DNA from: Poseidonia sp.
Lineage (GTDB): Archaea; Thermoplasmatota; Poseidoniia; Poseidoniales; Poseidoniaceae
NCBI GenBank assembly: GCA_965661285.1
Contig: CBFIDD010000002.1
Span: forward strand, 320,001-384,000
DNA length: 64,000 nucleotides
Direction: 5' to 3'
Shown here: piece after piece, positions 3,699 to 47,407 of the stretch
Layout of the letters: each line of letters starts with the position of its first letter
How positions within the stretch are numbered: position 1 is the stretch's first letter
Notes under the pieces: generated by a model
What the model was told of the DNA's origin: nothing
What the model saw: only the letters and a program-made list of their open reading frames with translations
The model's database searches: none
Position numbers and translations under genes: made by a program

Positions 3699-4376
3699 AT
3701 GAGCCAGCGGGTTTGGTTGTACATCATGACCATCGCCGTTGGGCTGTGGATTTCTGCAACCGCTGCGGGAGGTCTTCTCCCTGATGCGCTGGCCGAATGG
3801 CCCGTGAACGTATGGTGCTGGGGCGTGTTTGCGTTTATTTTCAAAGGCGCCGACCAAAAGGAGCGCATTGAGATGGTCGCCGTCGTAGCGCTCGCAACGC
3901 CCATGGAACTGTTCTTCTCCGAGGTTTGGCTGGTCTACGAGTACCAACGCGAATTCATGCCGCTCTTTGTCCCAGCAGGCCACTATTTCCTCTTCGATCT
4001 GGGCCGGCGAGGAGCATCCCTGATGCGGGTTGAAATGGCCCTTCCGCTGCTCTTGCCCTTCGTCCCCCTCGTGGCCTACGGCGCATGGACGGGAGGTGAC
4101 ACCTCCGGGGTCGTCATGCTGCTCCTCGTCTTGGGATTCACCAAATGGGGACCCCAACCGCGACTGTATGCCGCCATGGCGTGGGCAGCCTTGGCCATGG
4201 AACTCTGGGGGACCTATCTCGGAAACTGGACGTGGGCCACCGACGTGCCTTGGACCAACTTGACAGCGTGGAATCCGCCACTCCTGGTGGGCGCCTTCTA
4301 CTGTTTTGGCGACCTCTTGGTTAACCTGTGCGTTGCTAAGTTTCAAGGGGAACCTACGTCCGAGGTTCTACCATGA
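3699..4376 (+). CDS. Uncharacterised multi-pass membrane protein
   Basis: About 6-7 hydrophobic segments; two similar halves (MELFFSEVWLVYEY / MELWGTYLGNWTW). Confidence 0.75.
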   Translation: MSQRVWLYIMTIAVGLWISATAAGGLLPDALAEWPVNVWCWGVFAFIFKGADQKERIEMVAVVALATPMELFFSEVWLVYEYQREFMPLFVPAGHYFLFDLGRRGASLMRVEMALPLLLPFVPLVAYGAWTGGDTSGVVMLLLVLGFTKWGPQPRLYAAMAWAALAMELWGTYLGNWTWATDVPWTNLTAWNPPLLVGAFYCFGDLLVNLCVAKFQGEPTSEVLP

Positions 4377-4705
4377 CCGGCGCTGACGAGCTGCGCAAGC
4401 GCCGCGAGCAAGAGGCGCTTCGTATTCGTACGGCGCTGAACCGGCAGCGTGGCGAACAGCGTGCCAACACCAAGGGAGGCGAAGGAACCGTGGCCTTTGT
4501 TGAGGAACGCAAATGCATCGGTTGCGACCAGTGCACCATCGTCTGTGATGACGATGCGATTGAACTCTACTTCGTGGATGTCCGCAGCCCGCTGATGTCG
4601 GTGGAGAGCAACCGGAAGGCGAAGATCATTCGAGATGCGTGCACAGGATGCCGATTGTGTGTCCTCGCATGCCCAACCGATGCCATCACGATGATTGACC
4701 GATGA
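4373..4705 (+). CDS. 2x[4Fe-4S] ferredoxin
   Basis: CIGCDQCTIVC and CTGCRLCVLACP; ATGA overlap with the upstream gene. Confidence 0.9.
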   Translation: MTGADELRKRREQEALRIRTALNRQRGEQRANTKGGEGTVAFVEERKCIGCDQCTIVCDDDAIELYFVDVRSPLMSVESNRKAKIIRDACTGCRLCVLACPTDAITMIDR

Positions 4706-4715
4706 GGTGAACCCC

Positions 4716-5003
4716 ATGTCAAAGAAAGGAAAAGATGCAACAGCCCAGCGATTTGGAGGCGAATTTGGCCCTTACAGGAAACCCGGCACGGAAGGCGTTT
4801 CGCTGTCGACCTTCAAGAACCTGGTATGGACTTCGAATATCGGAGGTTTGCTCCTCGTCGTGCTCGCTTTGGAACTGCTCTTTGTCCAGCAGCGATTCAT
4901 GTGGGGCTTCCTGTCCTTGGTCGCCGGTGTGGCCATCGCCCTGTTCCCGTCCAACTACGAAATCGTCGGGATGAGCGACGAGGACGAAGACGACGCATCG
5001 TGA
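4716..5003 (+). CDS. Small two-helix membrane protein
   Basis: ATG at 4716 after a GAGGTGA Shine-Dalgarno; two hydrophobic segments and an acidic tail. Confidence 0.7.
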   Translation: MSKKGKDATAQRFGGEFGPYRKPGTEGVSLSTFKNLVWTSNIGGLLLVVLALELLFVQQRFMWGFLSLVAGVAIALFPSNYEIVGMSDEDEDDAS

Positions 5004-5018
5004 TGAGGCGTATCAATC

Positions 5019-5122
5019 GGTAGCGTCTGACAAGACCCACTGCAAGCCCTCTGATGAGGTCAAAACGAATCAGTGGGTTTGTGCATTGACCCTTTGATTC
5101 GTTAGTATAACCATTGAATCAG
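5019..5122. repeat. Left arm of a 104-bp inverted repeat bounding the island
   Basis: Aligns without gaps to the reverse complement of 8171-8274; by hand count 84/104 identical, 63/68 in the core 5034-5101. Confidence 0.9.
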
Positions 5123-5125
5123 CCT

Positions 5126-6313
5126 CTACTTTGCTTTTCGATCTGAATATGAACTCAACCATGCCTCATCAATCATTTCGTTAATCCAATATTTACTTCG
5201 TTTTATTATCGTCATGAGTTGCCTTCCATGTATTAACTTCAATGGATATCTTAGTTCATGAACCTCTTCTTGTGCTTGTTTTGAGAAAAATGAGGTGGTG
5301 ACATAAATCCCATATTCTCCTCTGTCGAGTCTTGCAACTAAGCGCGATAATTGAACGGGATTAATGTAGTTTGAACTGGCATACCTCTTCACCTCTCCTT
5401 TCAATTTAATCTCAAATCTGAATGGTTCATCAATCATCATTGAACCTATGAAATCAAATCCTCCGTCTCCACTATTCTTGGTTTTTTCTAGATTTTTGAA
5501 TAAAGTGCCTCCGACTTCAAGGAAAAGATCAACGATTATTTGTTCAAAGACATACGGGTTAATTTCATTCAAGCGTTCCAATGCCATCCATTCTGGAGAA
5601 TTGGTTGGTGGTAATTGATCTTCTTTTGTCAAAATTGAATCATTCCAAGCGGTAAGATATGAGTGGGCATTCCTTGATACGTATTCTCTCCAAGCAAGAG
5701 GAGATTTGTCCAGTCGGGAATCAAGTTCCTCATGCTTGCGCCAATTCGTCAACCAATCAATCGCAACCTGTGGGGTATTTAGAATTCGTAAAGTTGCTCT
5801 GTAATTCCTAACAGGTATGTCTCCATCCATGAACCACTCAACGTCTAATTTTTCTAGAATGCACAAACCGTTGAAGCGATTATATCCCGTTCTTTTTGTG
5901 AAATGGAGAATGAAGGAAGGTTGAGTTGAACCGTTGCGGAGGTTTTCATCGAGCGCCTTCAGTACTTTGTTTCCTTTGAAATCATCAAGAGACTTATCTG
6001 GGTCTGCAACTGAATCGCCCCAGTAATAAATTACACCATTGTGCTGGTCAACAATATCATCCCAAGGTTTAGGAGTATTCGTTTTACCTGAGTGAGTGAA
6101 CAAAAACACACCGTCAATTTGCTTCTTTCTTGATGAGTTTGGAGATTTCAATGCTCTAATGCCCCCTGCATTAGTCAACCCGGATTCAGGTAGGTTAACC
6201 CAACTCAGAAATTGGTCTTCCGGATCGTCTTTCCTTTTTGCGTCTCTGTACTCTTTGCCGACCTCAAAGAATTTCCCAGAGCCTGCTGTAATCCAGTTAT
6301 CTGAACCACTCAT
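5126..6313 (-). CDS. Modification-dependent restriction endonuclease, MspJI/AspBHI-like (N-terminal recognition domain plus Mrr catalytic domain)
   Basis: PWDD...IYYWGD N-terminal region; FEQ...DGGFDF...GEVKRY PD-(D/E)xK motif; SRLVARL; GIYVTTSFFS; no methylase nearby. Confidence 0.8.
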   Translation of the reverse strand: MSGSDNWITAGSGKFFEVGKEYRDAKRKDDPEDQFLSWVNLPESGLTNAGGIRALKSPNSSRKKQIDGVFLFTHSGKTNTPKPWDDIVDQHNGVIYYWGDSVADPDKSLDDFKGNKVLKALDENLRNGSTQPSFILHFTKRTGYNRFNGLCILEKLDVEWFMDGDIPVRNYRATLRILNTPQVAIDWLTNWRKHEELDSRLDKSPLAWREYVSRNAHSYLTAWNDSILTKEDQLPPTNSPEWMALERLNEINPYVFEQIIVDLFLEVGGTLFKNLEKTKNSGDGGFDFIGSMMIDEPFRFEIKLKGEVKRYASSNYINPVQLSRLVARLDRGEYGIYVTTSFFSKQAQEEVHELRYPLKLIHGRQLMTIIKRSKYWINEMIDEAWLSSYSDRKAK

Positions 6314-6353
6314 GAATTCCCCTCAACTGTTGTGGTAATTGAAATTATCACAT

Positions 6354-6432
6354 TAATCAGAGGGTCACTCTGATTAGGCCTCAAAGCAGAGGGTACCCAC
6401 TGCTTACCCATCTGAGCAAAGGGCGCCCTCTG
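6354..6432. repeat. Cluster of palindromes related to the island-end repeats
   Basis: TAATCAGAG-N5-CTCTGATTA, CAGAGGGTACCCACTG and CAAAGGGCGCCCTCTG share TCAGAGGG / ACCCACTGC words with the terminal repeats. Confidence 0.65.
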
Positions 6433-6449
6433 AAGAATAATTATCCAAC

Positions 6450-7100
6450 CTAGATCCAACCCTTAAGAATCGTGTGTATACCCGCTTTTAGTTCAACACT
6501 CATATCGAGGTTAAGAAACGTTAAGTCTGGGTGTTTAAGGGCAGATTTGGAAGGGCTTGAGGGGTTTGCCAGAGGATAAAGTCCCAAGGCGAAAGCCAAC
6601 ATCTGTCCAAATGCTTGAAGGGCATCTTCTAGTCTGGTAAAATGCCCGTTTCTCATTAATGCCTCTGCACCTCTCTGCATGAGTGAGAGTAGATTCAACT
6701 TATGTTCAATTAGCACTTCAACTGAAACCTCTCGTTCATACAATGCTGGAGTAAGTGAAAAAAGAGAAAGAAAGCGATATTCCTTGAGAAAGATTTTGGT
6801 GATGGCACTCGCAAACATATCTAAATCGCTTAATTCAAGTTTGGAATCTTCCTCTAATCCGAGAACTACGTCCTCAAAATCGCATAGATGAACATGAAGA
6901 AGCAACGATTGGATGTTCTCAAAATATCTGTAAATACCGCTCGGTGAAATTCCAACCGAGCTGGCAAGCGGACGCATTCGAAGATCCAGCGGGTCAGTTG
7001 TTTTGAGAAGCGTGCGGACGGCTTCAACAATCGCTCTTTTTCTGACTTCACGATGCTCAGTTGAACGAGCGCGTTGGAAGGGAATCTCTGGGCCAGTCAT
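6450..7100 (-). CDS. TetR/AcrR-family transcriptional regulator
   Basis: FQRARS.. N-terminus; HTH LASSVGISPSGIYRYFEN; divergent from the SDR. Confidence 0.88.
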   Translation of the reverse strand: MTGPEIPFQRARSTEHREVRKRAIVEAVRTLLKTTDPLDLRMRPLASSVGISPSGIYRYFENIQSLLLHVHLCDFEDVVLGLEEDSKLELSDLDMFASAITKIFLKEYRFLSLFSLTPALYEREVSVEVLIEHKLNLLSLMQRGAEALMRNGHFTRLEDALQAFGQMLAFALGLYPLANPSSPSKSALKHPDLTFLNLDMSVELKAGIHTILKGWI

Positions 7101-7137
7101 GTGAATAACCCCTGCTCTGGGTGGAGGACACTTGAAC

Positions 7138-7160
7138 TTAACGGAACACTGTTTCGTTAA
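7138..7160. promoter_or_regulatory. Candidate TetR operator
   Basis: TTAACGGAACA-C-TGTTTCGTTAA, 10/11 symmetric, in the 66-bp divergent tetR/SDR gap. Confidence 0.7.
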
Positions 7161-7166
7161 ATATAT

Positions 7167-8174
7167 ATGGAGGATTTGGTTCGGCGAATCATGCCTCGTT
7201 CTCTCCGAATTGACCCAAGCCTTCGTAACATCGACCTCTCCGGAAAAAGATACGTCATCACCGGTGGCTCAAGCGGCTCAGGACAAGCCACGGTTGAATT
7301 CCTTGCAAAGCAGGGTGCCGAGGTGATCACCACGGGACGAGATCTGGCTCGTGGGCGTCAAAATTTTGAATCCCTACCGCTCGCTGTCCAGGGACGAATC
7401 ACACTCCTTCATCTTGATTTAGAAAACATGGAAAGTGTCGAAAAGTTTGCAGCTGAGGTAAACAAAAAGTGGCAGTCGTTTGATGCATTGGTCAACAATG
7501 CGGGAGGTGCCCTCACGAAAAACGGCACTTTCGAGCTAAACAGAAAAACATACGACAAACAATTTGTCGGCAACCATATAGGGGTATTCCACCTCAGTAA
7601 CTTACTTCTTCCCGGGCTTGAAGCCAATGATGGGGCTCGACTCATCAACGTCTCATCCGTCATGCACGACCAGGCGAAAGGTTTGCAGTCGACTCAGGCT
7701 CAGATACATTGGGATGACATCCATGCCCGCAAGCGCAAGTTCGATGGGTTTGACCAGTATGCTCAATCAAAACTCGCCAACCTCCTTCACGCAAAATCGC
7801 TGGCAAGGAAGTACGATAAAGACAACATTGCTGTTTTCCCCGTTCACCCAGGGACGATCAGCAAAGGCAGTCGTTTCGGCCGTTCGATGGGACCACTAAT
7901 GCGCGCAATGATGGTCCCTCTTAGCATCCTGATGGGACCTATCATGCGCCCCATCACGAAGGAAGACGGCGCTCAGACCACCCTCCACTGCCTGCTTTCC
8001 GAGGAAGCTCTGAACCACCACGGAGTGTATCACGCTCAAACCGGACTCAAACACAGCGACGGTGTTCGCGGGGGCTGGCCGTACCGGTCAGCCAATCCGT
8101 TGTCTCATGACGAAGCCGCTCAGGACCAATTGTGGAGCCTGAGTGAGGAACTTGTGGCAGAATTGAAAGCCTGA
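7167..8174 (+). CDS. Short-chain dehydrogenase/reductase, retinol dehydrogenase-like
   Basis: TGGSSGSG, NNAG, NVSS, YAQSKLAN, VHPG. Confidence 0.9.
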   Translation: MEDLVRRIMPRSLRIDPSLRNIDLSGKRYVITGGSSGSGQATVEFLAKQGAEVITTGRDLARGRQNFESLPLAVQGRITLLHLDLENMESVEKFAAEVNKKWQSFDALVNNAGGALTKNGTFELNRKTYDKQFVGNHIGVFHLSNLLLPGLEANDGARLINVSSVMHDQAKGLQSTQAQIHWDDIHARKRKFDGFDQYAQSKLANLLHAKSLARKYDKDNIAVFPVHPGTISKGSRFGRSMGPLMRAMMVPLSILMGPIMRPITKEDGAQTTLHCLLSEEALNHHGVYHAQTGLKHSDGVRGGWPYRSANPLSHDEAAQDQLWSLSEELVAELKA

Positions 8175-8274
8175 TTCAATCCACAATTCGTCGAATCATA
8201 GGGTCAAAGCACAAACTCACTGATTCGTTTTGACCCAATCAGAGGGCTTGCAGTGGGTCGAATCACTCGCTACC
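8171..8274. repeat. Right arm of the 104-bp inverted repeat
   Basis: Reverse complement of 5019-5122; begins at the SDR stop codon; followed by the perfect 18-bp palindrome TCAGAGGGGCCCCTCTGA (8293-8310). Confidence 0.9.
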
Positions 8275-8322
8275 CTGAGATTTGGCAACCCATCAGAGGG
8301 GCCCCTCTGAGTCGTCGCCGTC

Positions 8323-11133
8323 TCAAGCTTCTGCGGTCTCGCCAACGGTCGTTTCGGCACCGAGTTGGGCCTTCTGCTCGTTGACTTGGCGAGCGAGGAA
8401 GGACACGACGTCGAGGATCTCGATGTCAGCATAGGCTTCGTCGCCCTCGAACTTGAGGCACTCAAAGTGAGAAACACACTTTGGGCAGGAGGTCAACATG
8501 GTCTCAGCACCGGTTGCACGGACTTCTTCCATGCGTGTGACACGCAGGGAGCGGGCGTTCTCGTTGCAGGACATCATGCTCGAAACACCGCAGCACATGG
8601 CGTCTTCACCGCTGTGCTCCATCTCAACAATCTCAACACCATCAACAGCGTTGATGAGGTCGCGAGGCTCGTCGTAAATGCCCATCTGTCGACCGAGGCG
8701 GCACGGGTCGTGGTAGGTGACGGTGGTGTCTTCGGTCTTGAGGTTCATGTCAAAGCCTTGCTCGGTCAGGTATTCCGTGGTGTGCATGACCTTCACGTTT
8801 TCAAGTTCGTAATCACGGGCAAAGGTTCGGAAACACTCAGCACAGGACGAGACCAAGGTGTCAATGCCAGATTCGTTGATCTTGCGCTGGTTGTACGCCT
8901 TGAGCTTCTCAAAGACTTCATCCAGACCTTGCCACTTTTGGTCGTGGCCGCAGCACTTCAGGAAGTCACGGCCGAGGTAGGCCACGTCGGTGCCCATCTC
9001 CTCAAACAGGGTGAAGGCAGCCGTGGTTGTATCACCAAGGTTCATCGTGCCTTCGTTGACGTGGGAGAAGACCATCTCCTGGTCAAGGTAGTCAACGCAT
9101 CCAGGGTAGTATCCGACGTTGGAGGTGATGGGGTAGTCTTCGGTGGCGATGAAATCGTCATCGGCCGCTTCCTCAGCCTCAGCGTTGAGCACCGCTTGAA
9201 GGACGGTGTGCGGAATTTCTGCCTGCGGGCCGCCAACGATAAGCGAACGACGGATGTCAACGTAGGAGTCATAGTTGACGAGTTGAGGACAGGCGTTGGT
9301 GCATGCGGTACAGGTCAAACAGGAATACAGCGGGACGCCGTCGTCTTCGTTGTTCCACGAATTGTAAATGATGTTCAGTTTGTCGCCACCGTTGAACAAG
9401 CGGACCGGACAGGCGTCGTCGCACAGGTCGCAGCCGTAGCACTTGTTCATCTCGAACTCGTAGCCACGAGCCATGTAGCGCAACAGCACGAAGACCAGCG
9501 CACCGAAGGTGATGCATGGAATGAACATGGCGTAGGTCAATTTTGCGTCAAGGGACTTGGGGTTTTGGTGGTAAGTAGGGTTCTCGATGTACGAGAACGC
9601 CGAACCGCCCAGGGCCATCTCTTCGCTGTTGGTAAGGTTGACCGTGTGGCCGGCCAATGCTGCAGGAGCGCTCTCATCCCACACGAGCAAGGGCTGGTAG
9701 GTTGCGATCCTCATCGAGGTTTGCGTCGTGATGCTGTTGTTGAGCGCCAGCGCCCCGCTGACCACGACATCGTAGGTGTAGTCGTAGGTGCCAACGGACA
9801 TTTCGACGGTTGCACCCTCGCAGTTGGCGAAGGAAACCACTTCGCTACCCGTGGCGTCGGTGACGGTCAGCATGGTAGCGACCATGGTTTGGGTTGACAC
9901 ATCGTTGATTTTCCGTTCGCTGGAGCGGAACTCACACGCAAGGTCGGTGGTCAAGGTGGTGACCTCTTCGGGGTGTCCCTCGGGGAAGAGCGTGGTGTCT
10001 TCAGTGATGGTAAACGAACCGCTCACGCTGAAGCCATCCCCACCGTTGAACGTGGTTCCAGCCGCCGCTGCGTTGATGCCGTTTTCGGCGTCTTGATGCC
10101 CGTTCGCATCGTTGAAATCCGTGATGATGTAGCGGGCTGGCTGGTAGATGTTCCAGTTCAACCATGCCGTGGTTGGAACCACGCCTGAGTCGGACCACCC
10201 GCGGTCGTCGGTGAATTCATTCACGTCGTGAACATGAACATCGGAAGGCTGCGTTCGCATGGCCTCCAATTCGCCATAGTCCTTGATGGTCAGCAAACCT
10301 TTCGCATCCCAAAACCCTTTGTCGTAGGTGTCGAAGGTGGCCACGGTAGCGGCGGACGAGAGGATAAGCGCGCCGACGATGAGTTGGCGACTCTTGGCGA
10401 CCGTGAACCCTGCACCCCAGGCGCGGATGAGCAATCCTCTGCCGATGAAATAAATACATATCCACATCAGGACGCCTGTCATCACCCACGGTATCGCATT
10501 GAAGACTTCGGCTATCCACGGCTCCCGAGTTCCACAGAGGAGGTCGCCGTGGGAATCGAGTTTACAGAAATCGGACCGATTTTTCCCGTACAATTCCAGG
10601 AAGATGTTGATGGAAAACACCGAGATGAACCAGATGTGCGCAAGATAGACGGCACCGGCAGCTGCGAACCAAGGGTCCTCAACGGGTCGCTTCTCACGGC
10701 CACCAAGGAAAGGTGGCAAAGCGAGAATGCCCACGGGGATGCCGGTCAGCGCAGCGCCCCACCATGCAGCGTTCCAAGGGAACATGGGCTGGCCGACGAT
10801 ATCGCCGACGAAACCGGTGGGGACCACAAACTGGGGCAAGTATTCGCCCCAGCGGAGATACCCGTAGGAGAACAACACGTACCAGTCGGGGAACACGAAA
10901 CCGGCCTGTGCATACGGGTCGGCTGCGCCGTGCAGTGGTGGAGGAATCAGCCAGGCATAGAAGAGGAGGATGGAGAGCATCGAGGCGAAAATGATGCTAT
11001 CACGCAGCACTTCGTGCGGCCAGAAACCGTGGCCGGTTCGGGTTCGCTTACGCTTTTCCTCTGCTTTTTGCAGTTGCTCTTTCTCCTCCATATACATGGA
11101 GGCGACGCGTCCAAAATTGTCAATCAGTCCCAT
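8323..11133 (-). CDS. Fusion protein: cytochrome b subunit IV (PetD-like), extracytoplasmic domain and HdrD/GlpC-like Fe-S module
   Basis: FWPHE and PDWY (PEWY-equivalent); CYGCDLCDDACP, CLTCTACTNACP; YYPGC..CCG..SSCAEC and YHDPC..CCG..TSCPKC. Confidence 0.85.
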   Translation of the reverse strand: MGLIDNFGRVASMYMEEKEQLQKAEEKRKRTRTGHGFWPHEVLRDSIIFASMLSILLFYAWLIPPPLHGAADPYAQAGFVFPDWYVLFSYGYLRWGEYLPQFVVPTGFVGDIVGQPMFPWNAAWWGAALTGIPVGILALPPFLGGREKRPVEDPWFAAAGAVYLAHIWFISVFSINIFLELYGKNRSDFCKLDSHGDLLCGTREPWIAEVFNAIPWVMTGVLMWICIYFIGRGLLIRAWGAGFTVAKSRQLIVGALILSSAATVATFDTYDKGFWDAKGLLTIKDYGELEAMRTQPSDVHVHDVNEFTDDRGWSDSGVVPTTAWLNWNIYQPARYIITDFNDANGHQDAENGINAAAAGTTFNGGDGFSVSGSFTITEDTTLFPEGHPEEVTTLTTDLACEFRSSERKINDVSTQTMVATMLTVTDATGSEVVSFANCEGATVEMSVGTYDYTYDVVVSGALALNNSITTQTSMRIATYQPLLVWDESAPAALAGHTVNLTNSEEMALGGSAFSYIENPTYHQNPKSLDAKLTYAMFIPCITFGALVFVLLRYMARGYEFEMNKCYGCDLCDDACPVRLFNGGDKLNIIYNSWNNEDDGVPLYSCLTCTACTNACPQLVNYDSYVDIRRSLIVGGPQAEIPHTVLQAVLNAEAEEAADDDFIATEDYPITSNVGYYPGCVDYLDQEMVFSHVNEGTMNLGDTTTAAFTLFEEMGTDVAYLGRDFLKCCGHDQKWQGLDEVFEKLKAYNQRKINESGIDTLVSSCAECFRTFARDYELENVKVMHTTEYLTEQGFDMNLKTEDTTVTYHDPCRLGRQMGIYDEPRDLINAVDGVEIVEMEHSGEDAMCCGVSSMMSCNENARSLRVTRMEEVRATGAETMLTSCPKCVSHFECLKFEGDEAYADIEILDVVSFLARQVNEQKAQLGAETTVGETAEA

Positions 11134-11148: not shown

Positions 11149-12015
11149 TCAATGCGGCTCCGCAATGCCTTGTACCCAAACGATGAACAGATGTATGATG
11201 ATGAGCGTGGTGACGATCACCGGCAGAATGAACACGTGAATGAAATACATTCGAGTGACCGTCAGCGGTGTGAGTTCAGAGCCCGAGAAGAGCAGGGTGG
11301 CGATGTACTTCCCAACCAGCGGGCTGGAGTTGGCGAGGTTGATCCCGATGATGGCCGCACCGTAAGCAAGGCTGTCCCACGGCAAGAGATAGCCGGAGTA
11401 GCCGAAGACGATGGTCAAGGCCATGAGGGCCACACCGATGAGCCAGTTCAGTTCACGTGGGTTTCGGTAGGCACCGGTGAAGTAGACACGGCACATGTGC
11501 AAGAACACGCTGGCGACCATGAAGTGGGTCGTCCAGTGGTGGACGGCACGCAGAATGTAGCCAAAGGGCAGTTGCGTCATGATGTACTGCATGCTTGCAT
11601 AAGCGGGTGATGGGTCGCCTTCGCCTCCGGGGACGTAGTAAATTCCGAGGACGGTTCCCGTGATCACGAGGATGATGAAGGAGAGGAAGGAGATACCGCC
11701 GAGACAGTACAGCGGGTACCAGTACCAGATGATGCGGAGTTTGTATTTCTCAGCGTGTGTCAACGGCATTTGTCGGTGCATGTTGTAGTAGGCACCTTTG
11801 GACATGTTCCAGTAGTCTTGGAGACGGAAGCGGGTGTCAAGCCAGGAGAAGACCCACAGGAACGACCGTTCCGCCACGCCCATCTTGCCGGACGACTCGA
11901 CCGCTCGCAGGATGTCTCTGCGAGGCATTTCCTCGTTTTCCTTGCGCAGCGTGAAGGCCACCAAGAGCACGAGGAAGGCGATGAAGAACCACAGAATCCA
12001 GAACATTGTCGTCAT
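11149..12015 (-). CDS. petB: Cytochrome b6-like subunit
   Basis: YCLGG; heme-ligand histidines in RAVHHW/FLHMCR and FIH-x14-H; PRELNW; GYLLPWD; ends GIAEPH. Confidence 0.92.
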   Translation of the reverse strand: MTTMFWILWFFIAFLVLLVAFTLRKENEEMPRRDILRAVESSGKMGVAERSFLWVFSWLDTRFRLQDYWNMSKGAYYNMHRQMPLTHAEKYKLRIIWYWYPLYCLGGISFLSFIILVITGTVLGIYYVPGGEGDPSPAYASMQYIMTQLPFGYILRAVHHWTTHFMVASVFLHMCRVYFTGAYRNPRELNWLIGVALMALTIVFGYSGYLLPWDSLAYGAAIIGINLANSSPLVGKYIATLLFSGSELTPLTVTRMYFIHVFILPVIVTTLIIIHLFIVWVQGIAEPH

Positions 12016-12024
12016 GTCAACACC

Positions 12025-12870
12025 TCAATCACAATACGTGTACCAGTCCACGTAGTCAGGCAGGCCTTCGATGACGCCGCCGTTGAGCTGAATCGGAATG
12101 ATGGGAAGACCCACAGGGGCAGGACCGCCCGCTCGGCGAATACCAGCATAGTTGAAGGTGGCACCGTTCGAACGGTTACGATTGGTGTTCATCTCCAAGG
12201 CCGTTGGGTCAAAGCGAGAGGAGTGGCAGATGCAGAACATCTTGGTGCCACCGTCGTCGCCGCCACCGGGCGTCCACGAGTCTTCGGTGAAGGAATTCGA
12301 GACGAGTTGCCATCCGGGGATACAACACAGGTGTGTGCAGCGACCGAAGGCCATCACGAGGTCGTCTGAAGGCATTAAACGAGGGTCGGCTTCAGCGAGG
12401 TCTTCGAAGTGACCGACGTATTTGCCAGTCTCGTCGTAGCCTTCCATGAACTGGAACCGAGCCTTACCGTTGGATTCGGGCGTGCCGGCATACTTGGAGT
12501 GAGCGACATAGTTCACAACGACGGGCACGCCGTTCCATACGCCCGCTGCACCGGCCGTGCCGGTCGAGGAGGAGGCAGCCTCGGCTTCAAAGTCCGCTTT
12601 GGTCATGGGCTGCAGGTGTTTGGCGCCGTACCATGCTTCATCTTCGCGGCCCTTGGCCCAAAATTGGACGGCCAAGTCGCCACCGCTGCCTCCGCCAGGT
12701 GGCAGAAGAATAGCAGCAAATCCGAGCATGCCAAGCGAAGCGGTGAGCACGCCCGCTGCGGTGTTGAAACCGTAGCGAAGGAACTGGCGTCGATTGATGG
12801 TGGTGGTGGAACCGCCCAGAGCATCGTCGCCGCTGGAAGGTGCAGGTTTGAGTTCGTATTCACGTGCCAT
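12025..12870 (-). CDS. petC: Rieske [2Fe-2S] protein with Tat signal
   Basis: NRRQFLR twin-arginine plus TM helix; CTHLCC and CICHSSRFD boxes; GGPAP. Confidence 0.9.
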   Translation of the reverse strand: MAREYELKPAPSSGDDALGGSTTTINRRQFLRYGFNTAAGVLTASLGMLGFAAILLPPGGGSGGDLAVQFWAKGREDEAWYGAKHLQPMTKADFEAEAASSSTGTAGAAGVWNGVPVVVNYVAHSKYAGTPESNGKARFQFMEGYDETGKYVGHFEDLAEADPRLMPSDDLVMAFGRCTHLCCIPGWQLVSNSFTEDSWTPGGGDDGGTKMFCICHSSRFDPTALEMNTNRNRSNGATFNYAGIRRAGGPAPVGLPIIPIQLNGGVIEGLPDYVDWYTYCD

Positions 12871-38394: not shown

Positions 38395-41300
38395 TCACCG
38401 CTGCGGGATGGCTTGCATTTGAGCGATTTCACCGCTCATTCGCGTCAGTGCTTGGACAGCGACCTCTTGGTGTTGAGGGCCCATCTCTTCTCGACTGTAC
38501 CGGGCCATCTCAAACGTGTTGTCGAGGGCGGTCAGAGCATCCTCTGACACGCCCTGCAGCGCTTGGCGGATGGCGAATTCGAATTCCCGAACGGTTTCGA
38601 AGTCACGTCGGAGGAAGCCACGCTGCTGCAGCAGACCGCAGAGGTCCTGATAGCAGGTGAAGATGGCTTCTCGTGTTGCATCCCCGGCCGCCAACAACTC
38701 GGCGGTGTAAGCGAAGACCTCGGCCGCATCCTTGAGCAGGTCGTCGGCGAGTTGCTTTCGTCGGTACATCACGACGCCACCGGCGATGAGCGCGGCGAGC
38801 GCAAGCACGAGGAGGTAGGACCACCACGGTGTTTCCGCTTGTTCTTCTGCAAATTCGTATTGCACAGCAAAGCCTTCACTTCGCAGTGATTCAAAGCCCT
38901 GAAGGCTTTGGGCTGAAAGGCGAGGATCGTTCACGATGATATCCATGGTCAACTGGCCCCAAACATCAGCATCGCCGTATGGCGGGTCAGCATCGAACAC
39001 AAAGGTGGCTTTCCCGGTTTCATCGGTTTGAGCACCACGGTTGGCGAGTTGGGATTGGTTGGCATCGTAGAGATAAATGACAACATCAATCCCCGGCAAG
39101 CCCGTACCCGTATCTTCGGCGATAACGGTGAGGGAACCGCCCACGTCTTCTTGTTCGTCCTCAACCACCTCGAGGAGGTCTACGGTGATGACGGCGTCGA
39201 CCTGTACAAACACCGTTTGACTGATGCTGGCAGCGTTGAGGTAAAGGGAATCGTTTCGAGCGACGTCAAGGAAGAAATACTGCGAACCGACTTCGAGCCA
39301 ATACGGCGCCGTTGCGGTCAGCGAGAAGTTTCCGTTTGACCACACGACGCTGCTCTCTGTGAAGCAGCGTGCTCCTTCCCGACCACCCTCACAATCCGAA
39401 CCGTTCCCAATGCTCAGCAGGAGGTTCTCAAAGACCTCACCTGAGCCTCCGATCTCCTGCACAGAACCCGAATAGAAGACGGGTTCAAACACACTATCAG
39501 AGCGGGTGACGACGTTCGTGTTTGAAGTTGGGTCGACTTGAATCAACAGGTCAGCCCATACCCGAACACTGCTTTCTACGTCGGCTGGAAGATGCGCCTG
39601 CGTCCCTCCAAAGACCACGCCGATGGTGTGTTCGCCCCGGGACAAGTCCATGGTTGCAGGCACCGTTGCGCTCCACGCACCATCAGCACCGGTGGTGGTC
39701 GTGAAGAGCGTGTTTCCGTCGAGTTGGACGAGCAATTCGAATCCGACCAAACCGTCGCGGTCAACGGTGTCGAAGTCGTACAGGCGGCCACTCAATTCCC
39801 ATGTGTCGCCACGGGTGGCATCAATACCATCGTCGAACACCAAGGTGACCCATGAACGATGGGAGAGGAAGAACGAGACGTTTCCTTCCCCGGCACGGTA
39901 ATATCCTTGTGGGGGTGATTCTGCGAACAAGGTTCTGTTCCCGAAGTCAAAGATGTCGGGAACGACCCAGTCATAGGTGAACGCACCGTTTTGGTCGGTG
40001 GTCAAGGTGGAGATGACGATGCCTTCCACGACCAGTTGAACTTCGTGGTTTGCAACGCCCACGAGTTGATTGTCAACCACCGAACCGGTGATGGTCACGG
40101 TTTGGTTCACCGCCACCGGCGAGGAAATATCCACCGTTACGAGGACTGGACTGAAGATTTCCCACAAACCACTGGCGTTGCTGGGGAGGTAAGCCACGGT
40201 CCCGGTGAATCGGGTTTCCAGAACCACTGGACCAAGCGGAGCGTCTGCGGGCACAGGATGGACCGCAGAAAACTCGCCAAGTTCGTCCGTCGTCGTGTTG
40301 GTCAGCCACTGACCACCCAGCCATACCTCGATGGTCAGGTTCGGTAGCGGGTTGTCAACCACATCGAGAAGACGGCCTTGGATGGTGATCGTTGTTTCTC
40401 GGTCGGCATCGCCTGTTGCGGTCAACAGGAGAATCTTCGTGGGTACGCTAACGTTGAATTCCACCATCGCAGAGCTGGGTTGGTAGTATTCGGGATTGTT
40501 GGTGTCCCCGTAGCCGACAGGGTCAACCCATTCACGACCACCACGGAACTCCACCGAGATTTGGTGGGGACCTGCAGCCGTGTCTTCTGGGAGCGCGTAC
40601 GAAAGGGTGTATGCACCCGAGATGTTGTCCGTTTCAATGCTGGCAACGGGAACGCCATCGATGAGAAGGTGCACCACGGCAGTGGAAGGTACACCGTTTC
40701 GTTGCAAGACCAAGCCCAGGTCGTCCAACAGCGTGCCGTTCACGACCAACATGTCGCCAGCCACCAGCACCGTTGGTGCTTCGGTGATGGTAACCTCGGT
40801 CGCACCGAGGACGACAAAGGACGAACTGGCGTTGGTTCCAATGATGCCCGTGGTGCCGGCGATTCCGGTGTAGTCCGCATGGATGCCGGTCGGGCCGACG
40901 CTCATGTTGGCTGGGACGGTCAGGTTGCCCCAAGCAGAACCGTTGGAAGCCGTCAAGACCGTGATTTGGACGGGTGAAGCATCGTTCAGCGTCGCCGTGA
41001 GCGAGACGAGGACGCTTTGATTAGCCAGCGGGAGGCCTTGGTTGTCCCGGAGGAGAATCGAGAACTCAACGATGTCTCCCCTTTCGGTTCGGTCGTTCAA
41101 CGAGGGTTGACCGATACCGTCAAGTGCGGGGAGAATGAAATTCATGACCGAGAACCCACGAGAATCGAACGAGGTGTTGTTGGTCGAGCCAACGTAATAG
41201 TTGACACTCGGGATGTAGGTGGCTTCCATCACGTGGCTACCAGCGGCGAAGGTTTCACTGAGGCGAATCGTGGCGTTCCAATACCCATCAGCACCGACGG

Positions 41301-44300
41301 CACCGCCTGTGGCGGTGAAGCCAGTCGGTTGGCCGTCAATGGAGAACAACACGTTGGCGTTCGCCAAGACGGAGTTGTCCCGCTCAACCAGTCCCGAGCC
41401 GTTGTCGGAGGTGATTTGCCCGCTGATGTTGAAGGAGGTTCCTGCAACGGGGTTGGCTGCGATGCTGTCAACGACCATGAAAGTCAACGAGCGCACGGTG
41501 ATGCTGGTCAGGTTGGCGCTGGTTGAAAGGAGGTCGGTGGAACCGTTGAACACCATCTGAACCACGATGAGGCCCAGAGGATGGTCATAGGGCACGTTGT
41601 AGGTGAAGTTGGCAAACCCTTCTCCGTCCGTGGTTTGTGGCAGGAGCCATGTTTCGTGGAATTGCAGCGCCACCTCGTAATTCGAGAGAGGAGTAAACAA
41701 GTCTGAGGCTTCGACAAGTTGCGCTGACATGTTGATGTCGTTTCCACGGTTGATGACCACGGCATTCAACGGCTGGAGGTTCTCGAGGCGAGAGACGCCC
41801 ATGACCTGGATGGGCGATTGCGCCGTGGCGGTGAGATAGAACGGCGAGGACTCGTTGACGACGGTGACCACCAGCGTGTGCGGGCCACGGGTCGTACCGT
41901 TGCCGGCCGTGTCGGTTGGCACGGTCATGTTGAAACTCCCGTTGTTGGTTGTGGCGTAGTTGCTCAAGAGCAACTCTTCGGGGTTTTCTAGCCAGAACAC
42001 GTTCAGCCTGACGGCGGAAATGAGTGGACGGGTTGCGTTCTCAGCGTCTTCAACCTGCCCGACGACGTTGAACGGGACGCCTGCCGTTACCGTACTTGGC
42101 ACAGAGATGAGCGAGATATCGCTGGTGACTTGCACGGTCACGTTGATCACAGTCAAATTACCGTAGCGGCGCGAGTTACCTTCACTAAGAGCTGCTGTGA
42201 GGTCGTCCTGAACAACGATGCCGACGTCGTAGAACCCGGGTGCAATGCCCGACGGTGTGAAGTCGAACGTGGAGTTTCCTTCGCCGTTTGAGACCACCGT
42301 TCCAAGGCTTTGGTTTGACTTACCGTAATCCCAGACATAGTCAACGCTTGCTCCGCTGATGTTGGAGTTGTCCGCAATGTCGGTGATCTTCGCCGTGAAT
42401 GAAACCGTGTTGTTCATCTCCACGATGTAGGATGAGCGTTCGGCCTCCACCACAACCTCGGTGATGATCCCACCCAGCGTGGATATTTGTGCTGGGGGTG
42501 CAGGGGGGACGGACGTATCCACAAAGGCGTAGTATGCGCCGCCCGCAGGCGCTTGACTGACGAAGTCAAAGTCAAGAATGAATTCATAAGCGTCTGAACG
42601 GAGGTTCATCGGCATCCTGATAGGGATATCAAAGGCACCTGTGCTGTTGTTCAAGGTTGATTGCGCGATGTCGATGGGCCCTTGTTCGGTGAACAGGCTG
42701 ACACTGATGAGCGTGGTGTTGTTGAGGACCGGCGTGAGATAGACCGCATCAAAAACATCGCCGACAAGTCGGGTCGAGTTGCCCATGAATGTCCAATCCT
42801 GCCCGATGGAAAGATTCCATCCGATGTTGGCCATGACACGTAGGGAACCGAGTCCAATTGAGGGTTGGTAAAACGATGAACCGTTGAAGGAGATGCCGAT
42901 GGGGTAGTCGCCCGAGCGTAGGTTGGCATCGAGAGGGATCACAATTTCCAACACATCGGTTTCCGGATCCACGGTGGTGTTGAACCACGACCCATTGAAG
43001 GTGAAATCGTAATTGCCGAAGATTTCAACGCCGGCGCCCACGCCCCGATGGTCGTTGATCTGCACACTGACAAAAGCATCCTGTCCACGCACCTGTGATG
43101 ACTCCTGGACCTCAAACGTCAGCAAGCCTCGGAGGAAGTACGGGGGGTCGACCGTCAAGTTAGCGTCGTCCGTTGCTGGCAGCGTTGAGGGGAAGAAACG
43201 CAATCGCGTCTCGATAGCGCCGGCTGCTACACCAACGTTGGTTGGCATGGGATACTGAACGGTGAAATTCCCGGTGACACTTTGATTGAACAACTCCACC
43301 CAAACATTTCCGGAATCCAAGGCCCGAATGGCAAACTGTAGGTTCCCTGTCAGAGCCGTTGGCGTTGGGCCGAGGGACAGGGCACTTCCGTTCACCCAAA
43401 CGTCATCACCGAGGAGGAAAACGCTCCTGTTGCTGGTCAGAGGACCTTCGATGGTGGCCGTTAGATTTGGGGCCTCGGTGACGTTGAAGGTAATTGAGGT
43501 CGTGGTCGGGTTGAGATGGAAGAGAGCGGGTGTTGAACCTGGAACGGAGGCATCTTGCCAGCCTGAGAATCCAAGGGTCGCCGATAACGGACCGAGCGTC
43601 TCGGCCTCGCTCAAGTTGATCGAGATGCTCCAGGAGCCACTGATGTCGGTTTGTGCAGTGAGATTTTGCGCTCCGTCAACTGAAGAAGTGTACGACAGCC
43701 ACACGGTTTGATTTGGCAGATTGGAGATTTCATCAATCGGTTCATTCGCCAGAGCCAAGCGGCCCTCGAGAACGGTTGTGGCGCCCGCGCCGACAACCGG
43801 GGTGTTGATGGCCAAGGGTGCGGTGTGGACGATGGTGGTGTTCTCGGTCAAATTGACGTAGCCTTCGAAAATAACGCCATCATGCGAAACATAACCGGAT
43901 TGACGGTGTTCGATGACGATGTTGTGCATACCGGGTGCACTGGGTGCGTCGGGGAAGCCGATCATGCTGAAATTGCCGTTGGGGTCAGTGATGTTTTCCT
44001 CAAGCAGGAGTGAAAGGTCAGCGCCTGGACCAGGGACAAAGGGTGCATCACTTACGGGTGAGAGGTAAGCGAACACACGAATATTGGATGCCGGAGTGCC
44101 GTTGGCGGCATACCTCAACTGCCCTGACACCGAGATGCTCTCGGTACCGTCCCGAGCAACGGTGAACGTTGAGATGGTTTGGTTAACGACCTCGATCTCC
44201 TCAGCTGGTGGGCACGGGTCAAAGGCAATCCATCCGAGGTCGGTGTTTCCGTTGGCGCTGTTTTGCTGCAGTCGAACCTCCGACCACGTGGCGGCGTCCG

Positions 44301-47300
44301 AGGCGTAGACGGCATAACCTTCGCCTGTCCATGTGCCTCCGATGTAGCCCGTCACCTGACGAGCAGGAAGCCCAGCAAGACGAGCCATGGTCACGAAGGC
44401 CGTGTTAAACTCACGACACGAACCCTCTTTCACGGCTTCAACCACATTGAGGGTGACGTCCATCGGACTCATGGTTCCCGAACCGTTGAAGTTACGCTTG
44501 AACTCGGTCGTAGCATTGCCGTTGGTGAGGAAGTCTTCCAGGGCAAGCGCCGTATTGTAAGCATCCGTTGCCCCTGCTTCGGCAATGACAGCGGCCGTGA
44601 CGTTATTCACGTATGAGAAGGCCGAAGAAGAGTCGGTAAACTGAGGGTCGACAAGCAGCTCGTAAGGGAAGCCTTGACCGGGGACGGTCGTTGACGCCAA
44701 GTTTGCCCAATCAAAGTAATACTCAGGTTGTTCGTACAAGACCTGCTCTACAGAACCAGCAACCAGCGAGAGCATGTGCGTATCGTTCGACCTTGAGATG
44801 TTGGCTGAGGTTTCGAAGACGAATGAGATGTTGGAATAATATGCAGGAGCAGGGATTTGCCCTGTCGTTATGGGGCGGTTGAATTGAAGGTTCCACTGGA
44901 CGGTTGAGTTGGCAAGGGAAATCGGTGCGAGGTGAGTAAAGTTGCTCATGGGAACAACGACCGCCTCCGAGGGATGAACGCTGTCGAGGTGCGCGTAGGT
45001 GCTTCCGGTGTAGAAGTCATTGGTGATGGTGCGCCACCGATGGTCGCCGTTGAGATCGACGACTCCCGAGGTATTGTTTGCGAAAAAGACAACATCATCC
45101 GACATGATGTCATCGCTGGGGTCAAACACATCAAAGGGCGCGCCTATGCAATCAAAAACCCAAAATGCATCAGGACACTCATCACCGTCAAGCATCCCAC
45201 CACCGTCTGTATCGGGGTTGGTCCAGTCGGTTCCGGTTTGATTCTCAACGGCATCGGGCAATCCATCACCGTCAAAGTCGGCGGGTTGAATATCATCAGA
45301 AGGATCGTTTTGCGGGTTCGTTCCGTCAAAGTATTCACTGCGGTCATCCACGCCCCCCTGGTCGGTATCGAACGCGTTGGGAGCTGTCACCCAAACATCT
45401 TGGGAGCCGTTGGTGATGCCGATGTAAATCAAATCACAGCCAGTGGTGTTCTCAAAGTAGTTGTTGAGTCCGTCGGCGTCATCGTCCAAGAGATTTGAAC
45501 ACGGCTGATTGGGATCGGTGTTGTCCTGAACTTCGTCAAAGTCATTCACGCCGTCAGCATCGCTGTCGGCGATGCTGGGATTGGAGAACCATCCAAAGGT
45601 CCCGAGAAGTTCTTGCCAGTCTGCCAGACCATCACCGTCGGTGTCCTCGTAATCGTCGTCGCAATACTGCTGCGTTGTGCTGATTGTTCCTGAATTCGTG
45701 GCAGCCGTGTGGCAAAATGAACCGTTGCGATTTGCTACCTGGGTCGCCACGCCCGAGGGCCCGTTGGAAACACCCTGCAGAATGTTGGCAACCACAGTCG
45801 CGTAGGCAAAACTTTCCCATGTTCCGGATACGTTGTACCAACCAACGCCCCCTGCGGGGTTGAAACCCGAGCCGTTTCCTACTTCGACCCTGCTGGCGCT
45901 GAGTTCCTGCACGAAGGTGGTCTCAAAGTTCACAAGTGAATCGCAAGGATCCGTACCGTGGCTGATGTTTCGTTCCTGCCCGTCGTTGATGCCGCCAAAG
46001 TCCGTGTCGGCCACATTCCACAGCGTACACGTCAGGTTTTCCTCCCAGTTCTGTATGCCGTCCTGGTCTTCGTCTCCTGAATCCTCACGGCGTGTGGGGT
46101 CCGTCTCACCGGCATCCAACACACCGTTGAAGTTGGTGTCTTCCTCGCCGTCATCAAAAGCATCCCCGTCGGTGTTGTTGTTGCGCGGGTCGCTGGCTTG
46201 GGCAGGGTTGCCGTAAGCACCGTTCACCTCGATACCGTCGCTGATCCCGTCGCTGTCGGTGTCCGAAGACGTTGGATCGGTCAGCAACGTAAAGGCTTCG
46301 TACGAATCGTTCAACCCGTCGCCGTCGGTGTCTGCCCTCTGCGGATCTGTCGAGGTGATACCGTCAACCTCAGCGGTAAATGTGGCACAACCACCCGGTC
46401 CAATGCCTTGGACTGGGTCGCAGGGCGAGGTGGTCTCGGTGACGATGCCATCGGGGCCGTTGCGGAAACAGGGCGAAGAGCCGCACATGGTCGTCCATGT
46501 CGGGTTGACGTACTCGAGGAGGTTGTTCAGGCCATCACCGTCGGGGTCGCCGTTTGGACCGTCAGCGTTGGAGGGCGAGGTGGCGTTCAAGCCGTTAGCG
46601 GCTTCCCAACCGTCGGGCATGCCGTCGCCGTCGGTGTCCCAACCTGCGGGGTCTTCATCGATGACGCCGTCGCCATCATCGTCATCCGATAGACAATCGG
46701 CATCGCCGTCGTTATCCGAGTCCGCCGAGTCGACAAATCCGTCTTTATCATCATCAAATCCATTGGCGCAAATATTCCCGACGGGGTCCTCGTCGCAGAG
46801 GATGATCGAGCCCGTGCCGTCGGAACCTGCCGCACCGCATGCGGGTTGGTTGAACTGCATGGCGTCTTCCTCGTTCCAGTCGTTCACGGGAACGGTGCCG
46901 TTCCACCAAACACCGTTGTCCAGGACAGAAGCGGTGTTGGTGTTGTCCCAACCGCTGGGTTGGAGGTAGAGGTATTCTTGCAAATTGGACATGCCGTCGC
47001 CATCCGGGTCAGCGACTGCGCCATCGGCACCGGTGGACGACAACGGGTCGAGGCCGTACTTCCACTCCCAGCCATCGGGCAAGCCGTCGTTGTCCGAGTC
47101 GGGGTCGTTGGGTTGGGTGTTCATGAGGTACTCAAGGCCGTACGTGAGACCATCACCGTCCTGGTCGGATGCTGCTTGAACATCAACGACCGTGTACTGA
47201 ATGGAGGCGAGGGTGGAGAGGACCATCAAGAGGGTGAGTGAGAGCGACTTGAGCGCTTTTTTCCGCTCTGCGAGGGCTGGTCGAATCGCGGCCGCATTGG

Positions 47301-47319: not shown

Positions 47320-47407
47320 GAGTCTCACGCTATCGGGTGCGTCTGATGCCTCATAAGGGAAATGGTACGATGTTCATACAACAACGATTTCGTGAGGCGA
47401 TTTTTGC

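Follow-up and report, generated by a model that had tools for sequence, protein, structure and literature searches.

Composite boundary elements at putative gene cassettes without a linked recombinase in Marine Group II archaea

The dif modules of Acinetobacter are described, in the available text of two reports, as accessory or resistance modules that lack their own recombinase, change places among replicons, and are presumed to depend for movement on a chromosomal enzyme acting in trans (PMC6449649, PMC13141974). Integrons and clusters of attC sites lacking an integrase (CALINs) have been reported, according to the available text of a third study, in 75 metagenome-assembled genomes (MAGs) of archaea that span nine phyla (PMC9668308). 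In their logic, these two systems appear to be the closest to the one considered here, a family of composite DNA elements that includes an inverted repeat in a 64,000-nucleotide (nt) stretch of a Poseidonia sp. genome (contig CBFIDD010000002.1, positions 320,001 to 384,000; "the window" below is this whole stretch). We propose that the elements, together with distal modules at the other end of the cargo, bound small gene cassettes that are exchanged by an enzyme acting in trans, a reading whose chances we judge to be about even. Poseidoniales, or Marine Group II archaea, are uncultured and are among the most abundant archaea in surface seawater; we know of essentially no account of how their flexible genes move. 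Topical searches of the literature on Poseidoniales repeats, islands, cassettes, or mobile elements gave no description of the element, and the exact core string was likewise absent from the papers searched; the available text of a paper on corA inversion (PMC10877094) makes no mention of repeats, palindromes, or recombinases.

The first-pass annotation of the window had described a 104-bp inverted repeat around a group of accessory genes. On recount, positions 5019-5122 matched the reverse complement of 8171-8274 without gaps at 84 of 104 positions, and blastn-short against the 64-kb window returned a 68-nt core with 63 identities (92.6%; E = 1.4e-22), both in agreement with the figures first given (84/104; core 63/68). 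A separate repeat search placed the arms at 5019-5101 and 8192-8274 (83 nt, 88% complementary). Identity ends at both limits of the 104-nt repeat, with 20 of 50 positions matching outward and 13 of 60 inward. The internal hairpin reported earlier (CGAATCA...TGATTCG) was found in both copies, at 5066-5101 and 8192-8227, and the reported cluster of mismatches between the hairpin and TTGAATCAG is real. Both copies also adjoin stop codons, as had been claimed. A minus-strand open reading frame (ORF) of 395 amino acids (aa) terminates at 5126, 3 nt from copy A, and copy B contains the TGA (8172-8174) of an ORF for a short-chain dehydrogenase/reductase (SDR), which terminates at 8174. Pfam agreed with the identities originally assigned to these two genes (restriction enzyme and SDR). 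Neither blastn-short nor a profile search found a third copy of the repeat in the 64-kb window.

We scanned one genome per species (185,579 species, 596 Gb) for the exact 18-nt core string and recovered 24 loci, designated here by number. The whole element could be aligned in 18 of them. The other six (L010, L011, L012, L014, L016, and L019) have only the 18-mer, and their number is close to the chance expectation for 18 nt in 596 Gb. The 18 real loci are labelled Poseidoniales, Poseidoniaceae, or Poseidonia (11 loci), "Methanobacteriota archaeon" (5 loci), uncultured euryarchaeote (1 locus), and Salipiger (L007). The L007 contig, from a MAG of the alphaproteobacterium Salipiger bermudensis, carries the element and a 286-aa ORF; it is probably mis-binned, because the protein that it encodes is 67% identical to that of L004 7424-8308. 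Among the loci recovered, the element family is confined to Marine Group II archaea (Poseidoniales). A profile search identified 26 copies scoring at least 45 (2 in the window and 24 in the loci) and two partial copies. Clustered copies number mostly two or three per locus and lie 0.4 to 3 kb apart, at these positions in the profile search:

Window: 5010, plus strand; 8282, minus strand
L008: 9975, plus strand; 12314, minus strand
L021: 9979, plus strand; 11130, minus strand
L004: 9093, plus strand; 10044, minus strand; 13137, minus strand (copies a, b, and c)
L005: 9977, plus strand; 11561, plus strand
L023: 1436, plus strand; 2370, plus strand
L015: 812, minus strand; 418, minus strand

The GGGTAG ends point outward in all four inverted pairs (the window, L004a/b, L008, and L021), and no recombinase is encoded between the inverted sites of any of them. 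Direct arrays are found as well (L005, L015, L023, and L004b-c), and solo copies are also present. The genes that flank the island in the window occur in none of the loci. When 5000-5135 was searched by blastn, neither the 50,697 phage records nor the 72,556 plasmids gave a match, and an Rfam 15 scan of 4000-9500 at E values up to 1 gave nothing relevant; its sole match was an XIST intron motif, by chance, inside the restriction enzyme gene. On the phage and plasmid results, a reading as known mobile DNA was rejected. A private pair with invariant cargo had been named beforehand as an outcome that would speak against a cassette system; the repeat is instead one member of a family whose cargo differs among related genomes.

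For the anatomy of the element, we aligned 24 of the 26 copies; that of L006, truncated where its contig stops, and that of L013, a duplicate of copy B, were set aside. From outside to inside, the element consists of an outer arm (consensus CARWGGGTAG), a 12-nt block, a 20-nt core, and an inner arm with a hairpin, for a length of about 120 to 165 nt. The block exists as three discrete alleles, V1 (CGTCTGACAAGA), V2 (CGAGTGATTCGA-like), and V3 (GCTATGACAAAG), and block alleles and hairpin types assort independently. The core, CCCACTGCAAGCCCTCTGAT, is near-invariant and contains two CCCWCTG half-sites in direct orientation, spaced by 11 nt. Among seven secondary copies found by profile alone, too, no other block is as well conserved. 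The inner arm comprises GGTCAAAAC, the hairpin GAATCAGTGGGT...ACCCTnTGATTC, and an A/T-rich tail with the end TTGAATCA. It is the half-site CAGWGGG/CCCWCTG, in both orientations, that builds the element: 11 of the 21 CAGWGGG matches in the window, and all four matches to ATCAGAGGG, lie within 5036-8309. GTAG is nearly invariant in the 24-copy alignment (T22 and G24 invariant, G21 and A23 at least 90%) and is followed by a mini hairpin of 3 to 4 bp, the register of which differs among the three block alleles. The two elements of the window are laid out as follows:

5014..5023, plus strand: outer arm of element A, CAATCGGTAG (sequence and alignment)
5024..5035, plus strand: variable block of element A, allele V1, CGTCTGACAAGA (alignment)
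5036..5055, plus strand: core of element A, CCCACTGCAAGCCCTCTGAT (alignment)
5056..5122, plus strand: inner arm of element A, GAGGTCAAAA, with the hairpin at 5066-5101 (CGAATCA..GGGT..ACCC..TGATTCG) and an A/T-rich tail to TTGAATCAG (sequence and fold)
8171..8237, minus strand: inner arm of element B, with tail and hairpin (8192-8227) (sequence and fold)
8238..8257, minus strand: core of element B, identical to the core of A (alignment)
8258..8269, minus strand: variable block of element B, allele V2 (CGAGTGATTCGA on the minus strand) (alignment)
8270..8309, minus strand: outer arm of element B, CTCAGGGTAG (8270-8279), a 14-nt linker (8280-8293), and a 16-nt palindrome, CAGAGGGGCCCCTCTG (8294-8309) (module search)

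Folds are more stable than those of shuffled sequences (z scores of -2.5 to -4.9). For the hairpin plus outer stem, 77% of cells were paired and covariation was 0.125, compared with 0.105 for shuffled alignments (19 of 500 shuffles were equal or higher); for the hairpin alone, 85% of cells were paired and 4 of 10 pairs had changed on both sides. A structured RNA gene was too weak to claim, with RNAalifold giving six pairs and -3.7 kcal/mol on the 24 copies. Hammerhead (CTGATGA) and box C/D readings were dropped by eye, the letters concerned varying across copies.

A second module lies at the far end of the cargo. This distal module consists of a palindrome of 15 to 17 nt, a 14-nt linker, and CAGWGGGTA(C/G), the palindrome having the form CA[GA][AT]GGG, 1 to 3 nt, CCC[AT][CT]TG. 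We counted 14 palindromes, 12 strict matches to the whole module, and 16 profile matches at E values below 1e-3, all of them confined to the island of the window or to the real loci; the chance loci (97,939 nt) and the remaining parts of the window contained neither palindrome nor module. Two modules placed head-to-head form a 76-nt triple-palindrome junction, which in the window is made up as follows:

6358..6432, no strand: triple-palindrome junction (palindrome and module searches; fold z score of -4.9)
6358-6372: palindrome, CAGAGGGTCACTCTG
6373-6386: linker
6387-6402: central palindrome, CAGAGGGTACCCACTG
6403-6416: inverted linker
6417-6432: palindrome, CAAAGGGCGCCCTCTG

Like junctions are present at L004 9529-9603, L008 10549-10625, and L005 about 12012-12080. 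Outside copy B, 8270-8309 makes up a complete distal module ("U"), 13 nt from a host stop codon. A cargo-free half-junction occupies L004 17287-17374, in an 87-nt spacer between two convergent genes; with its central palindrome (CGTGGGTACCCTTTG), linker, and second, degenerate palindrome, it is a candidate for an empty attachment site. At L021 10337-10395, a distal module, an outer arm, a V3 block, and a core cut after CCCCAC are followed by unrelated DNA.

Pairs of genomes that have a cassette in common showed where homology begins and ends. Starting at GGGTAGCG and going inward, copy B and L013 match at 100% across the element and into the 3' end of the SDR gene, until the L013 contig ends, and their outer flanks are unrelated (a CCG gene in the window, a PolX-like gene in L013). 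Between L004b and L022, identity is about 99% over the core, the inner arm, an 86-aa membrane ORF, the palindrome, and the linker, as far as ...CGTAC. Past CGTAC they diverge, and on the other side they already differ in the 12-nt block (V3 versus V1). L008a and L024 have the gene at the inner end in common, and homology is lost at the same distal GTAC. A small membrane protein family stands at the inner end of the element in L007, L008, and L024, which carry the V3, V1, and V2 blocks, respectively. Because the breakpoints sit at the core and the distal GTA, the inner arm appears to travel with the cargo, and the block and the outer arm do not. The cassette unit would then run from the core through the inner arm, the cargo, the palindrome, and the linker to CAGWGGGTA.

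Compared with this unit, the island of the window reads as two cassettes head-to-head that would meet at the palindrome at 6387-6402. Unit 1, with the restriction enzyme gene, would extend from 5036 to 6395, and unit 2, with the SDR and TetR genes, from 8257 back to 6394 on the other strand. Their cargo genes are as follows:

5126..6313, minus strand: cargo 1, AspBHI-like modification-dependent (type IV) restriction endonuclease, 395 aa (Pfam, GC content, and homologues; AspBHI_N, E = 1e-24, and Mrr_cat, E = 1e-14)
6450..7100, minus strand: cargo 2a, TetR-family regulator, 216 aa (Pfam TetR_N and TetR_C_34)
7167..8174, plus strand: cargo 2b, SDR, 335 aa, divergent from the TetR gene (Pfam adh_short)

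With two cassettes in this arrangement, the full elements would appear as an inverted repeat with the GGGTAG ends outward, and a step in guanine-plus-cytosine (GC) content between the two halves of the island would follow. The GC content is 37 to 45% across 5100-7100, compared with about 55 to 60% in the flanks, and that of cargo 1 itself is 37 to 43%. The first-pass annotation had seen one island framed by one inverted repeat. The repeat stands; two cassettes joined at the junction at 6358-6432, which had been overlooked, are a better reading than the single unit. The same annotation had suggested cassette-like capture or inversion in trans, and to this idea we can add units with fixed breakpoints that are common to genomes and have no linked recombinase; capture or inversion itself is something that we only infer.

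The cargo differs from locus to locus. It includes AIPR (L004), HNH (L023), a treble-clef zinc finger protein (L005), pentapeptide repeat proteins (L021 and L024), and a TM2 protein (L008), with many small membrane ORFs, and housekeeping genes are found as outer neighbours. On a crude context map made from the longest nonoverlapping ORFs, with four copies unscorable at the inner end, 15 of the 22 scorable copies have a gene 3' end beside the inner end, and the other 7 have a gene start there; for the outer end, the numbers are 16 and 9 of 25. The repeat had at first been taken for a 3' tag on foreign genes. This holds as a tendency (15/22 inner ends) and fails as a rule, given the seven gene starts, and stops of host genes at the outer end are as frequent. 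No integrase, transposase, or Y1 family was detected among 145 ORFs within 5 kb of elements (Pfam, E of 1e-4 or better) or among the 46 ORFs of the 64-kb window, consistent with the absence of transposase and integrase reported earlier. When we looked for an element-linked enzyme by all-against-all blastp, there was one recurrent neighbour only, the small membrane protein of L007, L008, and L024, and we rejected it as cargo rather than enzyme. Contig ends are close by in 12 of the 18 loci, within 1.5 kb of the element, and in 11 of these 12 it is the cargo side that ends.

In the exchange that we propose, cassettes would be moved by a site-specific recombinase or transposase encoded elsewhere. 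This enzyme, acting in trans, would recognize the repeated CAGWGGG/CCCWCTG half-sites, and cutting or strand exchange would occur between GGGTA and the core. The ancestral empty site would be a cargo-free palindromic junction, such as that at L004 17287-17374, and in the window two cassettes would have been inserted head-to-head between two convergent host gene clusters. Several observations weigh against this proposal. The conservation of the core is partly ascertainment, because the primary copies were chosen by exact 18-mer. Mobility is deduced from comparison of assemblies, with no circle, empty allele, or inversion observed. Most loci are metagenome bins, and contigs misjoined at a 120-nt repeat can mimic the same cassette in different contexts. 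The variable 12-nt block misfits one fixed crossover point: the same cassette has V1 in one genome and V3 in another, and the distal junctions lack the block. Direct and inverted copies both occur, which a simple integrase model does not predict, and the direction of the cargo relative to the element is mixed (15 converging, 7 codirectional). Finally, the sequence at L021 10337-10395 is a truncated or rearranged junction for which the simple cassette model has no explanation.

In repetitive extragenic palindromic (REP) sequences, a short imperfect palindrome has GTAG at its 5' foot, of which the GTAG and mini hairpin of our element are reminiscent. It is conceivable, if rather unlikely, that the elements are ordinary structured intergenic repeats of the host, comparable to REP sequences and bacterial interspersed mosaic elements (BIMEs) and serving as terminators, mRNA 3' stabilizers, or chromosomal protein sites, and that variable genes gather there through homologous or palindrome-stimulated recombination with no dedicated mobility enzyme. 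REP sequences and BIMEs, and the REP doublets (REPINs) associated with REP-associated tyrosine transposases (RAYTs), are likewise intergenic and palindromic and often lie between convergent genes, and their GTAG beside a small hairpin may have a parallel in our element; REPIN doublets form long hairpins, as the 76-nt junction does here. Most of our copies stand between gene ends (3' ends at 16 of 25 outer and 15 of 22 inner ends), TTTT follows the hairpin in gene orientation, the folds are steadier than shuffles, and a 22-nt identical core could support recombination; the junction at L004 17287-17374 is free of cargo and lies between convergent genes. Host repeats of this kind would be expected to be dispersed, but about 50 other genes in the window have no element, palindrome, or distal module, both copies in the 64-kb window are at the island, and the 20-kb loci contain only clusters. 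Copies cluster only at variable cargo, with genes carried between the elements, and copy number appears to be low. Moreover, the same two breakpoint positions recur in three independent pairs, which is sharper than homologous recombination over 120 nt predicts, and the covariation given above (0.125 versus 0.105) is weak for an RNA structure. Somewhat further down the scale of likelihood, the 104-nt repeats could be the terminal inverted repeats of a nonautonomous transposon, such as a miniature inverted-repeat transposable element (MITE) or a composite flanked by MITEs, with its transposase encoded elsewhere; the CAGWGGG half-sites would be transposase-binding sites, as in the ends of Tn7 and Mu, and the GGGTA/CCC junctions would be abutted ends. 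Such elements likewise have long imperfect terminal inverted repeats, internal repeats that resemble binding sites, and no transposase inside. The outward-pointing conserved ends of the four inverted pairs, the five to seven copies of the 7-nt half-site per end in both orientations, the central junctions that resemble two ends with a common TA, and the absence of an internal enzyme all agree with a transposon. By contrast, no target site duplication was seen by eye in the aligned flanks of the four inverted pairs, and the homology between L004b and L022 breaks inside the element, at the boundary of variable block and core, and not at its terminus. Direct arrays are as common as inverted pairs, solo copies occur, and neither the phage nor the plasmid collection contains a match.

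Sites of the attC type carry RYYYAAC (R'') and GTTRRRY (R') at the ends of an imperfect palindrome of 55 to 140 nt. The first-pass annotation had called the repeat attC-like; an R''/R' pair 30 to 130 nt apart was present in none of the 24 aligned copies on either strand, and by consensus the label does not hold. That the loci are remnants of a canonical integron, as a CALIN, is very improbable in our view, even though the arrays, the small ORFs without known function, and the breakpoints that fall within the site follow a cassette-like logic. As in integrons and CALINs, small and mostly uncharacterized ORFs are each followed by a structured site, the integrase is often absent nearby, and a cassette can be found unchanged in more than one context, the break falling within the site. 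Here, however, it is sequence that is highly conserved, whereas in attC sites it is structure; there is a second, distal module; and the single orientation of attC arrays gives way to both orientations within one array, with inverted pairs in the window, L004, L008, and L021 and with 7 of 22 ORFs running away from the inner end. Integrons and CALINs are reported in archaeal MAGs, but Poseidoniales and Thermoplasmatota go unmentioned in the main text of that report, so far as available (PMC9668308), and our element, among the loci recovered, was seen only in Poseidoniales. An assembly artefact, in which the island was stitched into the locus through collapsed or bridged repeats, is also improbable, a little less so than an integron remnant. 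In its favour, the element matches the longest assembly k-mers in length, many contigs stop there, and L013 joins the same copy B to another flank. Yet the architecture recurs in seven multicopy loci from independent assemblies, of which L004 and L005 have single-cell-style isolate names, and a complete distal module typical of the family lies outside copy B, beside the host stop codon. With 20 mismatches in 104 positions, copies A and B are also not a single repeat that was collapsed.

Cassette exchange in trans remains closest to the dif modules, which, in the available text on them, likewise have short conserved boundary sites, frequently inverted, with no recombinase inside (PMC6449649, PMC13141974). 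The sites themselves differ: pdif sites are 28-bp XerC/XerD sites related to the host dif, whereas here they are composites of CAGWGGG half-sites, 40 to 165 nt long, and the setting is an archaeal chromosome rather than a bacterial plasmid. The 16-nt palindromes, with arms of 7 to 10 nt and a centre of 1 to 3 nt, have no obvious fit to the Xer 11-6-11 arrangement. We place the element system with the recombinase-free cassette modules, and there is a fair chance that it is a distinct archaeal system. More tentatively, Marine Group II archaea may have a gene cassette system of their own, with an integron-like logic, an unrelated composite site, and a recombinase encoded elsewhere, that moves defence genes and small membrane proteins between species. 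A boundary element that can be searched by sequence would open marine metagenomes to a systematic collection of cassettes, would account for the breaks in MAG contigs at such sites, and would offer a handle for finding the enzyme through phylogenetic profiling against gene families. Should that enzyme prove new, integrons would be joined by a second cassette platform of independent evolutionary origin, in archaea, with defence systems such as type IV restriction enzymes and AIPR as cargo.

The island lies between two convergent groups of host genes, of which the nearest are as follows:

4695..5003, plus strand: left host gene, predicted small membrane protein, 102 aa (ORF list; no Pfam match)
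8323..11133, minus strand: right host gene, CCG/4Fe-4S protein, 936 aa (ORF list and Pfam)

The left host gene is the last of a rightward cluster (asparagine synthase, GshA, ferredoxin, and the 102-aa membrane protein, by Pfam, all on the plus strand), and its stop codon, TGA at 5001-5003, is 10 nt before element A. The right host gene is convergent with this cluster, with its stop 13 nt beyond the palindrome at 8294-8309, and the right flank continues on the minus strand with cytochrome b (Pfam). The remainder of the window includes genes of the archaeal core (those for RNA polymerase H, B, A', and A'', L30e/L7Ae, FtsZ, ribonucleotide reductase, and a 2-oxoacid dehydrogenase complex), and the DNA is archaeal. 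An alternative 65-aa ORF at 4826-5023, in another frame, has as its stop precisely the TAG within the element's GGTAGCG. A host stop codon lies 2 to 16 nt outside the outer arm in several loci, for example, in TGAGCAAT immediately before GGGTAGCG.

We also compared cargo 1 with its relatives. Of its 13 best matches (48 to 100% identity), 11 are on contigs of 1.0 to 2.1 kb; for other relatives of the restriction enzyme, contigs of at most 2.1 kb account for 22 of 107 among the matches listed. The short contigs of the closest relatives suggest that assemblies break at cassette boundaries. More remote relatives, at about 40% identity, bear the names of bacteria and of a Thorarchaeota MAG. In unit 2, the 66-nt spacer between the TetR and SDR genes holds a near-perfect palindrome of 19 nt, AACGGAACACTGTTTCGTT, with AAATATATA after it (7140-7167). 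The former is probably a TetR operator and the latter probably an archaeal TATA box, and the SDR may start at ATG 7192, from a leaderless mRNA, instead of at 7167. Elsewhere in the window and unrelated to the element, a 2977-aa ORF at 38395-47328 (transglutaminase-core, MG2, Big_1, and TSP3) lies beside a 991-aa ORF; the two are giant surface protein genes typical of these archaea.

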